A DNA stretch of 64,000 nt from Planctomycetota bacterium. GTDB taxonomy: Bacteria; Planctomycetota; PLA2; JAEUHO01. The stretch is taken from positions 1,005,225 through 1,069,224 of the forward strand of contig JAXMAB010000004.1 in the NCBI GenBank assembly GCA_046350655.1. Reading direction: 5' to 3'. Below are positions 771-25,800 of the stretch, piece by piece; within the stretch, counting starts at the first letter, position 1; each line of letters opens with the position of its first letter. Under the pieces are notes generated by a model. That model saw nothing but the letters and a program-made list of their open reading frames with translations. It was not told the origin of the DNA and made no database searches. Both the position numbers and the translations under genes were made by a program.

Positions 771-905
771 GCCTCGCGGTCCCCGCGGTTCGGTACCGCC
801 ATTTTGGGACCGGCACCGGATGGCGGAACCAACACGGGGGCGATCCGCCAGTCATCGACCGGCATGTATTGGCGGATCGGCCGCCGGGCCTCGCGGTCCC
901 GGGAG
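771..905. repeat. composite intergenic repeat: REP-like arms CCGGGCCTCGCGGTCCC flanking two hairpin units (GGTACCGCCATTTT-GGGACCGGCAC-CGGATGGCGGAACC; CGATCCGCCAG..GACCGGCAT..TTGGCGGATCG)
   Basis: Inverted-repeat structure visible by eye. The same units recur at 7120-7325, 20895-20955 and 25570-25790. Confidence 0.5.
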
Positions 906-916
906 ATCGAGTGGGG

Positions 917-1738
917 CTACGGCGTCGGCTGGGACCACCAGGTCTGGTCGACGATGTGGCGGTCGAGGTAGGCCGCGGCGGCCGCGGGTTCGTCGGTCAG
1001 GAGCCAGAGGTCGAGGTCGCCGGGCGAGATCGCGCCCTCCTGCAGCAGCACGTCCTGCATCCACGCGACCAGCGGCCCGAAGTACGACGTGCCCAGCAGC
1101 ACGACCGGGATGCGGCGGATCTTCCGCGTCTGGATGAGCGTCAGCGTGTCGAACATCTCGTCCATCGTGCCGAAGCCGCCCGGCGCGACGACGAGGCCCG
1201 CCGCGAACTTCGTGAACATCATCTTGCGGATGAAGAAGTAGTCGAAGTCGATCGCGACGTCGCAGAAGTCGTTGATCTCCTGCTCCATCGGCAGGTGGAT
1301 GCCGAGGCCGACGGACTTGCCGCCGCCCTCCTTCGCGCCGCGGTTCGCGGCCTCCATGATCCCGGGCCCGCCGCCCGTGATGATCGCGTAGCCCATGGTC
1401 GCGAGGAGGCGCGAGGTCTCGCGCGCGAGCAGGCACCAGCGGTTGTCCTGCTTGAAGCGCGCCGAGCCCCAGACGCTGATGGCGGGGCGGACGTCGCGCA
1501 GTCCGTCGATCGCGTCGACGTACTCGCTGATGATGCGGAAGATCCGCCACATCTCCTTGCTGTCCACGCCGCGCTCGACGTGGGGGTCCTGGCCCTTGCG
1601 GCGCAGGCGGCGGCCGTCGCGCGACGGGAGCGGGAGCCCCGCGGCGTCGAGGGGGACCCCGCCCGCCGAGGGGGCCGGGCGCGGGGCGGGCGGGACGCCG
1701 GGTCCGTGGGCGTCGGGGCGGTCGGGGGCGTCGGGCAT
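917..1738 (-). CDS. LOG family / TIGR00730 Rossmann-fold nucleotide-binding protein (cytokinin riboside 5-prime-monophosphate phosphoribohydrolase-like)
   Basis: C-terminal 273 aa of track ORF 917..3433. Motifs ITGGGPGIMEAANRGA and APGGFGTMDEMFDTLTLIQT are LOG-family hallmarks. Start is ambiguous: ATG at 1738 gives a Pro-rich 60-aa extension, and the alternative ATG at 1552 gives MWRIFRII... Confidence 0.75.
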   Translation of the reverse strand: MPDAPDRPDAHGPGVPPAPRPAPSAGGVPLDAAGLPLPSRDGRRLRRKGQDPHVERGVDSKEMWRIFRIISEYVDAIDGLRDVRPAISVWGSARFKQDNRWCLLARETSRLLATMGYAIITGGGPGIMEAANRGAKEGGGKSVGLGIHLPMEQEINDFCDVAIDFDYFFIRKMMFTKFAAGLVVAPGGFGTMDEMFDTLTLIQTRKIRRIPVVLLGTSYFGPLVAWMQDVLLQEGAISPGDLDLWLLTDEPAAAAAYLDRHIVDQTWWSQPTP

Positions 1739-1794
1739 GGGGCGGCTCCTGCCGCCCCACCCTATCCGACCGCGCGGCGCCGGCCGCGCCGCGG

Positions 1795-24101: not shown

Positions 24102-24382
24102 GTGCTTTGCAATCCCTTCCTGGGGAGGGGGACCGGCGTCGGCCGGTCGGACGCGGGACAGTAGCAGAATCCGAGCCGAATGCGGTCCCAGGGTGGATTG
24201 TTTCGTAACTATTTTTCCAGTAACGAGTTACGAGTTTTGGCGTCGTGGGGGGGCGGACGGCCGCCGTTCATCGCGCGCGACGGACGTTCATTTCGCACGA
24301 CATCCCCCTCGCCGCCCGGGATTCCTCCCACCGCGGGCCGCTCTGCCTACAGAATCCCCCCGTCCCCCAGGGGGACCTCCCC

Positions 24383-25493
24383 ATGCCGACCCCGACCGAC
24401 CTCCGCACCCGTCTCGACGCCCTCCGGACCCGCCTCTCGCAGGTCAAGAGGAGTCTTTGAGCTCGACCGCAAGAGGGAAGAGGTAGCGAAGCTCGAGGCC
24501 AGCATGGCCGAGCCCGGCTTCTGGGACGTCAACGAGACCGCCCGCAAGACCGTGGACCGGCTCAAGGTCCTCCGCACGACCCTCGAGCCCTGGGCGCCCT
24601 ACGAAGCGCGCGTGGACGACGTCGGCGTGCTCCTCGACCTCGCGGTCGCCGAGAACGACGAGGCGGCGCTCGGTGAGGTCGACACGGTCCTCGACGGCCT
24701 CAAGGCCGACGCCGAGCGGCTCGAGCTCCAGGCCCTGCTCTCGGGCCCGCGCGACTCGATGTCGGCGTACCTGACCGTGCAGTCGGGCGCCGGCGGCGTC
24801 GAGTCGCAGGACTGGGCCGGGATGCTGCTGCGCATGTACGTGCGCTGGGCCGAGCTCGCCGGCTACACGGTCGCCGAGGTGGACCGCCAGGACGGCGCCG
24901 AGGTCGGCGTCCGCTCCGCCACGATCGAGGTCCGCGGCCCGTACGCGTTCGGGTGGCTCAAACACGAGGCCGGCGTCCACCGCCTCGTCCGCATCTCGCC
25001 GTTCGACGCGCAGAAGCGCCGCCAGACCACCTTCGCCGGCGTCGAGGCCATGCCGCTCGTCGAGGACGAGGCCGAGATCGAGGTCAAGGAAGCCGACTGC
25101 GAGATCACGACGTTCCGCGCCGGCGGCGCGGGCGGCCAGCACGTCAACAAGACCGAGAGCGCGGTCCGCATCGTCCACAAGCCCACCGGGATCGTCGTGG
25201 CGTGCCAGAACGAGCGCAGCCAGCACCGCAACAAGAAGGTGGCGATGCAGATGCTGCAGGCGCGCCTCCTCCGCCTCGAGGAGGACAAGCGCAAGGCCGA
25301 CGCCGAGAAGATGTACGACGCGAAGGGCGACATCGCCTGGGGCAACCAGATCCGCTCGTACGTCCTGCAGCCCTACCAGATGGTGAAGGACCACCGGACC
25401 GGCTTCGAGACGGGCGACACCGCGGGCGTCCTCGACGGCAAGATCACGGGCCTGCTCGAGGCGTCGCTCCGGGGGCAGAAGGCGCCGGCGTAG
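24383..25493 (+). CDS. prfB: peptide chain release factor 2 with programmed +1 ribosomal frameshift (frame 0: 24383..24457; +1 frame: 24459..25493)
   Basis: Frame 0 gives [25 protein letters not shown] then the in-frame TGA. The +1 frame continues [14 protein letters not shown]...[13 protein letters not shown]...[19 protein letters not shown].., homologous to E. coli RF2 across the shift (LRGYL/DYDAKKERLEEV). Confidence 0.85.
24446..24460 (+). promoter_or_regulatory. prfB: prfB +1 frameshift site: internal SD-like AGGAG, then CTT TGA G
   Basis: aagAGGAGtCTTTGAg. This is the classical autoregulatory RF2 recoding signal (Shine-Dalgarno-like element 3 nt upstream of CUU-UGA). Confidence 0.8.
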
Positions 25494-25534
25494 CGACGGC
25501 GCCCCCGCCCGCTCGGGGCGCGGTCAGGGGGTCG

Positions 25535-25800
25535 AGGACCGCGAGGCCCGGCCTGCCGGGCGACCAAACGCGCCAAACGGTGTCCGGCACCGGATGGCGG
25601 GATTGACCTCGATGGGCGGATACGAGCGGTTGCGGTCGCCGGCGGGGGACCGCGACGCCCGGCGGCCGTCGCGTCCCAACGCGCCAGATGGTGTCCGGCA
25701 CCCAATGGCGCGAATGGCGCCGGGGACGGCCTGCCGGGCGACCAAACGCGCCAAACGGTGTCCGGCACCGGATGGCGGGATTGCCCCCGGCCGGCGGGCC
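25535..25800. repeat. intergenic repeat cluster between prfB and purH: REP-like arms plus three variant hairpin units of the GACCGGCAC family (..CCAAACGCGCCAAACGGTGTCCGGCACCGGATGGCGGGATTG.. duplicated, ..CCAACGCGCCAGATGGTGTCCGGCACCCAATGGCGCGAATGGCGCC..)
   Basis: Direct duplication of a ~45-nt unit at 25573 and 25740. Conserved CCGGCAC core and ATGGCG(G) arm. Confidence 0.5.

Follow-up and report, generated by a model that had tools for sequence, protein, structure and literature searches.

Hairpin units in four intergenic clusters

Four intergenic clusters of a short hairpin repeat lie in a 64-kb window of a planctomycete genome, where the window is the whole stretch of DNA analysed here (64,000 nucleotides, ~73% GC; Planctomycetota bacterium, assembly GCA_046350655.1, contig JAXMAB010000004.1, positions 1,005,225 to 1,069,224 of the forward strand). 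Genes of the window were called from G+C content at third codon positions (GC3) together with Pfam. Cluster 1 is flanked by genes for a secreted protein and a LOG-family member, cluster 2 by a hypothetical gene and a giant gene encoding a 4314-aa SdrD-repeat protein, and cluster 3 by this giant gene and an SdrD-like gene of 981 aa, all these genes being on the - strand, and cluster 4 separates prfB from purH, both on the + strand. The first-pass annotation, made from the sequence letters without database searches, had described at least ten units in these four clusters, and the sequences it quoted were recovered where it had placed them.

The string GACCGGCAC occurs 9 times in the window against 2.6 expected, a count reached by none of 100 shuffles, and 6 of the 9 matches are on the + strand inside the clusters; the full hairpin pattern gave 6 matches with 0 expected. 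A regular expression joining the loop to the 3' arm (WCCGGCAY, 4-5 nt, WGGCG) returned exactly 10 units, each of which is on the + strand and within one of the four clusters, in accord with the earlier count. To these are added an eleventh unit, variant C at 7242-7276, with a different 13-bp stem around GACGACCGG and a fold of -24 kcal/mol, and a few degenerate B-type remnants recognised by eye (~20887-20907, 20975-21015 and 25604-25624). A covariance model trained on 69 units and run over the whole 64 kb matched the same sites as the pattern scans with 44-60 bits, one match (7170-7234) spanning unit B2 and half-unit A3, and revealed no further copy elsewhere in the 64 kb; no hairpin unit was present across 26-64 kb. 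The direct duplication reported for cluster 4 exists, with its extent corrected from ~45 nt to a block of 80 nt at 89% identity.

The anatomy of the unit was derived from the window, a related Planctomycetia metagenome-assembled genome (MAG; JAEUHO01) and 15 metagenome contigs, which together provided 71 units, 69 of them distinct. The unit is a ~45-base palindrome consisting of a 12-13 bp stem and a 15-nt spacer with the apex G-W-CCGGCA-Y. At least three stem classes were distinguished, namely class A (GGTTCCGCCATT; consensus cGGTTCCGCCA..ctGGGACCGGCACC.aATGGCGGAACC), class B (CGATCCGCCAAT; consensus CGATCCGCCAATcaaCGACCGGCAtc.ATTGGCGGATcg) and class D (ACGCGCCA; consensus cAgACGCGCCAaacGGTGTCCGGCACCaaATGGCGCGTc), and the three align without gaps in a common register, with the same 15-nt spacer and CCGGCA apex. 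Within the 12-bp outer stem, 82-85% of cells pair in register versus 18-42% out of register, and one such comparison gave 85.5% versus 25-42% with the partner displaced. Double-sided changes occur at six stem positions, and the cells that carry them number 94 versus 43 in shuffles (0 of 500 shuffles reached 94). Compensated sub-variants such as CCGTCCGCC/GGCGGACGG also occur. When hairpins were searched by their arms alone, with the loop ignored, the CCGGC apex was kept in 47 of 49 family hairpins and the spacer between the 12-nt arms measured 15 nt with a single exception; inner pairing within the spacer is weak and type-specific. The pairing, the double changes and the retention of the apex support the proposal of the first-pass annotation that the hairpins form a structured family in which the loop is conserved and the stems covary.

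The units fold stably on both strands, with RNA energies of -22 to -27.5 kcal/mol, single-stranded DNA energies of -13.6 to -15.5 kcal/mol and z-scores of -2.9 to -4.6. Such folds, the compensatory stem changes and some G·U-compatible pairs would also suit a structured RNA family, for instance a small RNA (sRNA), a riboregulator or an element of 3' untranslated regions (3'-UTR) whose loop is read by an RNA-binding factor. Against this possibility, the stem mismatches are about balanced between G·T (32) and A·C (21), and therefore neither one strand nor RNA is singled out.

Array polarity, distribution and turnover

All 42 adjacent unit pairs are arranged head-to-tail and none is inverted, and not one of 25 contigs carries units of mixed orientation. 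Arrays of mixed type make up 16 of 38, and their heterotypic junctions are co-oriented without exception (29/29). The units are interleaved with a second REP-like (repetitive extragenic palindromic) hairpin, R (GGGACCGCGAGGCCCGG / CCGGGCCTCGCGGTCCC), which is commoner than the hairpin units, with 41 matches in the window versus 8 expected. R shares the orientation of the neighbouring unit in 39 of 48 cases, with recurring spacings of ~35 nt from unit to R and ~42 nt from R to unit, and an inverted R terminates some arrays. R is also often found in tight inverted doublets that resemble REPINs (inverted REP doublets), as at 5176-5215, 28234-28273, 40316-40356, 48580 and 49125 of the window and at L111:9830-9920; in the GGGACC..GGCCC orientation it was seen by eye to form a hairpin of 7 bp that contains an A bulge and is capped by a GCGA (GNRA) tetraloop. 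The excess of R, the mixed arrays and the recurrent spacings confirm that the units are embedded among REP-like arms in composites resembling bacterial interspersed mosaic elements (BIMEs), and the features of such mosaics, i.e. intergenic clusters, at least two palindromic types and recurrent linkers, were all found. Tandem amplification is evident in L058, with 4.1 copies of a 60-nt period, and in block duplications in L099 and L103.

With respect to genes, 6 arrays lie in convergent, 9 in tandem (cluster 1 counted here) and 1 in divergent contexts. Arrays are sense in 14 cases and antisense in 16 to the gene whose 3' end precedes them, and in the window three of the four clusters run antisense to every gene around them. 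Since polarity relative to transcription is not fixed, the strict co-orientation is a property of the DNA and not of a transcript. Most arrays adjoin gene 3' ends, as an RNA element might, yet an RNA reader would meet GACCGGCAC in one set of arrays and GUGCCGGUC in another.

The genome collection was scanned with a pattern holding 19 fixed bases, and at least 88 loci were listed. Among these listed matches, genuine units with complementary arms were confined to nine contigs of the single Planctomycetia MAG (75-77% GC); the remaining ones were chance or coding matches, mostly single, in high-GC genomes. Many of the chance matches belong to a longer conserved string, CATCTGCCGCCACAC..GACCGGCA..TGGCGGGCCTCG, which evidently comes from the coding sequence of a single actinobacterial gene, where it is conserved, and is unrelated to the repeat family (L002, L019, L024, L048, L077, L078, L081, L085 and others). 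A 23-base pattern searched in the metagenome collection hit 15 short contigs and no others, so that further copies beyond the window are carried by the related MAG and by metagenome contigs. Two patterns found no match in viral contigs, and a phage origin was rejected on this ground. Rfam 15 gave no match over positions 500-26000, either at the gathering score or at E <= 1, which also speaks against a structured RNA. Among the matches listed, the family appears restricted to one narrow planctomycete lineage.

Orthologous spacers were compared in the MAG contig L114 and in loci L104-L113, which share synteny with the window. Relatives whose PurH is 78-85% identical have a repeat-free prfB-purH spacer of 67-157 nt; in L111 and L113 it reaches 188 nt and is occupied by two nested pairs of inverted R, hairpin units being absent; in the window and the MAG it extends to 353-392 nt, with D arrays inside an inverted R pair. 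The existence of orthologous spacers that lack units indicates that the neighbouring genes do not need the repeats. Between the window and the MAG, the array differs by an indel of a ~44-nt module (a type B remnant together with R), copies have exchanged variant sites, and identity is 84-92% in the units versus 93-98% in the flanking unique non-coding DNA. These comparisons show that the units are not conserved gene-linked elements, that they entered intergenic spacers mostly at gene 3' ends and rarely between divergent genes, and that the arrays turn over through duplication in tandem, gain or loss of whole modules and conversion among copies. The array-free spacers of relatives, the variable copy number and the lower conservation of units than of their unique flanks are likewise at odds with a functional RNA.

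The suggestion that the clusters bracket giant-protein paralogs is correct for this window and does not extend beyond it, where MAG arrays flank metH, lgt, a GNAT gene, a gene for a glycogen-debranching enzyme and similar genes, and the neighbours of arrays also include an extracytoplasmic function (ECF) sigma factor gene, a gene for an uncharacterised 208-aa protein and ordinary metabolic genes. A functional tie to the giant-protein paralogs is not upheld by arrays that elsewhere flank unrelated genes, and the present data assign the family no particular role at the giant adhesin genes, prfB or purH.

Origin of the units and relation to known repeat systems

We regard the units as probably lineage-specific, non-coding, non-autonomous and untagged repeats of the REP/BIME-like kind that were amplified locally, with a strand-specific, hairpin-recognising enzyme as their probable mobilising agent. 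The family is a new one of an already known general kind rather than an RNA regulator connected with the giant gene. The compensated stems, the kept apex and an insertion that is oriented and blind to gene direction are best accommodated by an enzyme of this type. For the spread of the units, a trans-acting enzyme would recognise the folded hairpin on one DNA strand, and the likeliest candidate would be an HUH/Y1 single-strand transposase of the IS200/IS605-RAYT superfamily (RAYT, REP-associated tyrosine transposase); hairpins that are transcribed would incidentally serve as stable 3' structures.

Several points weigh against this interpretation. We infer mobility from comparative presence and absence, and no clean empty site could be claimed for unit A4 in the comparison of cluster 3 with the MAG, as the alignment between the R arms was too diverged. 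Neither the window nor the 8-kb intervals centred on nine MAG arrays yielded a transposase or HUH gene (family-bearing DNA examined, ~170 kb), and genes for Y1, TnpB or other transposases were absent from the surroundings of every array examined. Inspection of the flank consensus revealed no evident target-site duplication, with no formal scan for such duplications made, and no conserved insertion target was seen beside the units by inspection. The head-to-tail order is the opposite of the usual REP/REPIN order (PMC3733652), GC skew, taken as a proxy for replication direction, is positive on the unit strand in 16 of 26 contigs and points neither way, and the conserved apex could equally mean a host protein-binding function. 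The first-pass annotation had also raised miniature inverted-repeat transposable elements (MITEs) with a matching transposase; in the units the arms constitute the whole element (39-45 nt), and the lack of a transposase in the family-bearing DNA, together with the lack of an evident target-site duplication, does not sustain that proposal.

A bolder form of the proposed hairpin-recognising enzyme is possible and was judged distinctly less probable. An invariant apex shared by stems that are interchangeable, a spacer fixed at 15 nt and a polarity without exception might constitute the cis-site of a new strand-specific hairpin-recognising system that inserts beside existing hairpins. Such an undescribed system would be distinct from the GTAG/RAYT, CGTC and class 3 CnGA systems, perhaps with the co-oriented R as a landing pad, and if true would mean that REPs of Planctomycetes have a novel partner enzyme or are amplified in a novel way.

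REPs form families of hairpin repeats associated with HUH/Y1 enzymes, besides which there are untagged stem-loop families (PMC3733652, PMC6006769). REP superfamilies are defined by GTAG or CGTC feet and short loops and occur mainly as head-to-head dimers with negligible head-to-tail arrangement, and tagged families have been reported in Planctomycetes (PMC3733652). Like the REP/BIME elements of Enterobacteria and Pseudomonas, the units are short GC-rich intergenic palindromes that are situated mostly at gene 3' ends and avoid divergent promoter regions, with several sequence types per genome, mosaic clusters and a presence that varies among relatives. Unlike REP/REPIN elements, they carry GTAG or CTAC in the foot windows of merely 3 of 69 units, possess a 15-nt loop with a conserved apex instead of one of 2-5 nt (PMC3733652), and are strictly head-to-tail instead of forming inverted dimers; a search of the 64-kb window and the MAG loci revealed no RAYT (TnpA-REP, PF01797-like) gene.

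We consider it unlikely that the units represent standard REP/REPIN elements dependent on a RAYT, or else miniature IS200/IS605 derivatives (palindrome-associated transposable elements, PATEs) whose autonomous parent resides elsewhere in the genome. This explanation draws on the intergenic hairpin repeats of several types per genome and their mosaics with an REP-like family that forms inverted doublets, on similar hairpins co-oriented on one strand, which is the layout of IS200/IS605 ends, and on the concentration of Y1 class 3 enzymes mainly in Planctomycetes (PMC6006769). It is opposed by the missing GTAG and the restriction of CGTC to just 17 of 69 units, the absence of head-to-head or tail-to-tail arrangements (0 of 42 pairs), the loop length outside the REP definitions, the different sequence and shape of published class 3 hairpins, the lack of a tnpA, tnpB or RAYT gene near the examined arrays, and the failure to find a conserved flank usable as a cleavage or target site.

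Three further known systems enter the comparison. The CGTC-tagged and untagged stem-loop sequence (SLS) families resemble the units in having no dedicated flanking transposase, and some are species-specific and some occur in large clusters (Di Nocera et al. 2013, PMC3733652; Cozzuto et al. 2008, PMC2267715). In CGTC families the stems measure 8-9 bp and the loops 4-5 nt, AT pairs occupy the first positions of the stem, the tails are CCA and the order is mainly head-to-head (PMC3733652), whereas the units show CGTC near the 5' foot in only the 17 units noted above, their stems are 12-13 bp and their loop 15 nt, they run head-to-tail, and their 3' flank consensus is not CCA. Class 3 Y1 enzymes are rare, are found mainly in Planctomycetes, Acidobacteria and Proteobacteria, and are associated with atypical CnGA-foot hairpins (PMC6006769). 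The hairpins of these 'REPtron-like' class 3 TnpA-Y1 systems are also non-GTAG and can reach hundreds of copies (Quentin et al. 2018, PMC6006769), but they have a CnGA foot, a short stem that is interrupted and a GTNA loop of 4 nt (e.g. CCGAGCCGCGACCGTAAGGGAGCGGA; PMC6006769). Identity with class 3 hairpins was rejected, as they share neither sequence nor shape with classes A, B and D and no class 3 gene was seen; some D copies start with CAGA, but there it is paired inside the stem. The ends of IS200/IS605 elements and PATEs are hairpins co-oriented on one strand, as are the units, and are recognised as a folded single strand, with an insertion polarity independent of gene direction (PMC3119063, PMC7290912). 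The units differ from them in that the flank consensus beside the hairpins shows no tetra- or pentanucleotide kept as a target or for cleavage, and in forming long mixed arrays instead of pairs of left and right ends, and no parent IS came to light in the DNA examined.

A further likeness exists to the Neisseria intergenic mosaic elements (NIMEs), which are large intergenic mosaics of few repeat types, sometimes near surface-protein genes. NIMEs are repeat units of 50-150 bp bounded by 20-bp dRS3 inverted repeats, and dRS3 elements are phage integration sites. The modules described here differ in being hairpins themselves with a common apex. The dRS3 (CGTC-1) elements of Neisseria are arranged in large clusters (PMC3733652).

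The constant 15-nt spacer and near-invariant centre, the independence of orientation from transcription, the clustering in arrays and the symmetric mismatch types might instead be read as double-stranded sites of a host protein, such as a nucleoid-associated protein, a topoisomerase-type enzyme or a dimeric factor, for which the arms would be half-sites and CCGGCA the central contact, and the arrays would organise or insulate the chromosome. Gyrase and integration host factor (IHF) have been proposed to act at the BIMEs of E. coli. This role appears improbable for the units, because at least three arm classes covary between the arms and offer no single half-site, for which intramolecular pairing is the better explanation, because the sites are missing in close relatives and turn over quickly, and because the asymmetry of the conserved centre makes a symmetric dimer unlikely.

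The sRNA or riboregulator suggested in the first-pass annotation is the least credible of these alternatives and we give it little weight, considering the lack of transcript polarity, the balanced mismatches, the absence from relatives' spacers, the module turnover, the lack of an Rfam match and the presence of a separate conserved terminator at a neighbouring gene. A sigma-54 promoter, to which GGCAC..TTGG bears some likeness as a -24/-12 element, was rejected by inspection, as the GG-to-GC spacing is 1-2 nt short and the -12 part reads TTGG and not TTGC.

Repeat families of the REP/BIME-like kind to which we assign the units are of use as strain markers, act as seeds of rearrangement and may affect mRNA stability, and their origin and amplification have been settled for few proteobacterial REP families only. 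With three stem classes, one apex and an invariable head-to-tail order, the present family is a clean counter-example to the paradigm of GTAG-tagged inverted dimers, in a phylum that is also reported to hold a rare Y1 class with atypical hairpins. A cognate enzyme, if found, would widen the recognition repertoire of single-strand DNA transposases.

Features of the window and neighbouring genes

The units, the variant and the R elements that belong to the four clusters are collected in Table 1.

Table 1. Hairpin units and REP-like elements of the four clusters, in window coordinates.
Feature	Position	Strand	Remarks
REP-like element R (GGCCTCGCGGTCCC)	770..783	+	left edge of cluster 1; 0 mismatches
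Unit A1, type A hairpin, loop GGGACCGGCAC	789..833	+	model match 51.5 bits
Unit B1, type B hairpin, loop CGACCGGCAT	838..882	+	model match 56.4 bits; RNA fold -27.5 kcal/mol, z -4.6
REP-like element R	887..900	+	right edge of cluster 1
Inverted pair of REP-like elements (7047-7060, 7098-7111)	7047..7111	.	ahead of cluster 2
Unit A2, type A, 5' arm partly degenerate	7120..7164	+	model match 55.7 bits
Unit B2, type B	7170..7207	+	pattern and covariance-model match
Half-unit A3, type A loop and 3' arm, fused straight onto the B2 3' arm	7205..7234	+	
Variant unit C, 13-bp stem GTGTCCATCGACG/CGTCGATGGGCAC, loop GACGACCGG	7242..7276	+	below model threshold
Unit B3, type B	7280..7324	+	model match 51.3 bits
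Degenerate REP-like element	7358..7374	+	end of cluster 2
Degenerate REP-like element (GGGACGCAAGGCCCGG on + strand)	20865..20880	-	start of cluster 3
Unit A4, best type A copy, 13-bp stem	20906..20950	+	model match 59.7 bits; fold -25 kcal/mol, z -4.3
REP-like element (GGGACCGCGAGGCC on + strand)	20955..20968	-	35 nt past A4; recurrent unit-R module
Inverted REP-like element	21031..21044	+	end of cluster 3
REP-like element	25535..25548	-	start of inserted block in prfB-purH spacer
Unit D1, type D 5' arm, GGCGGG 3' arm	25563..25607	+	model match 47.8 bits
Extra module: type B 3'-half remnant and REP-like element (25646-25659)	25604..25659	+	not in MAG ortholog
Unit D2, type D, arms CGCGCCA/TGGCGCG	25674..25718	+	model match 44.3 bits
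Unit D3, duplicate of D1	25741..25785	+	pattern and covariance-model match
Inverted REP-like element	25797..25810	+	end of inserted block

The giant gene between clusters 2 and 3 (7685-20629, - strand) contains ~20.7 tandem copies of a 306-nt (102-aa) unit at 9820-16141 and 16901-17510, and 33 SdrD_B stretches were recognised by Pfam in its 4314-aa product; syntenic relatives have giant genes of similar kind. The C-terminus of the adjacent 981-aa protein (21156-21500, - strand) contains a low-complexity Cys/Lys/Asp/Pro repeat (…CDKPKDRCDDDKSKCDKPKD…, several times over), after which comes a tail rich in Gly, Pro and Asn. On the 3' side of this SdrD-like gene (21075-21130, - strand) lies a canonical intrinsic terminator, GGCCGGCCC-GCGA-GGGCCGGCC followed by TTTTT, which is separate from the repeats, and a second palindrome, GCGGCGCGCATGCGCGCCGC, is also present there. 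The terminator and the second palindrome are identical in three genomes (the window, L114 and L111), and the spacer around them is not. A terminator role for cluster 3 was rejected, since the upstream gene keeps this conserved hairpin and T-run of its own.

Outside the window, two co-oriented arrays 0.8 kb apart surround an open reading frame (ORF) of 206 aa (L092:4029-4649, - strand), whose resemblance to Uma2-family endonucleases was judged from sequence and not confirmed by search.

In the prfB-purH spacer, a conserved hexamer (TACGCT, TAGTCT or TACCCT) is found 10-13 nt before the purH ATG in all relatives (25860-25887 in the window; orthologous sites in L107, L109, L110, L111 and L114) and is retained downstream of the inserted repeat block; it is probably the -10 element of purH, with a very short leader. 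The prfB ORF (24180-25493) is open for 437 aa, its PCRF domain begins only at residue 99, and the canonical CTTTGAC frameshift site was not found in the window. Relatives have prfB annotated at 328-369 aa, and the true start is probably internal. Farther downstream, an Mfd/TRCF-like ORF (33227-39106) is open for 1959 aa with recognised domains from about residue 970, compared with 1054 aa for the ortholog in L105, and would represent either a long N-terminal extension or an over-extension of the ORF in high-GC DNA.

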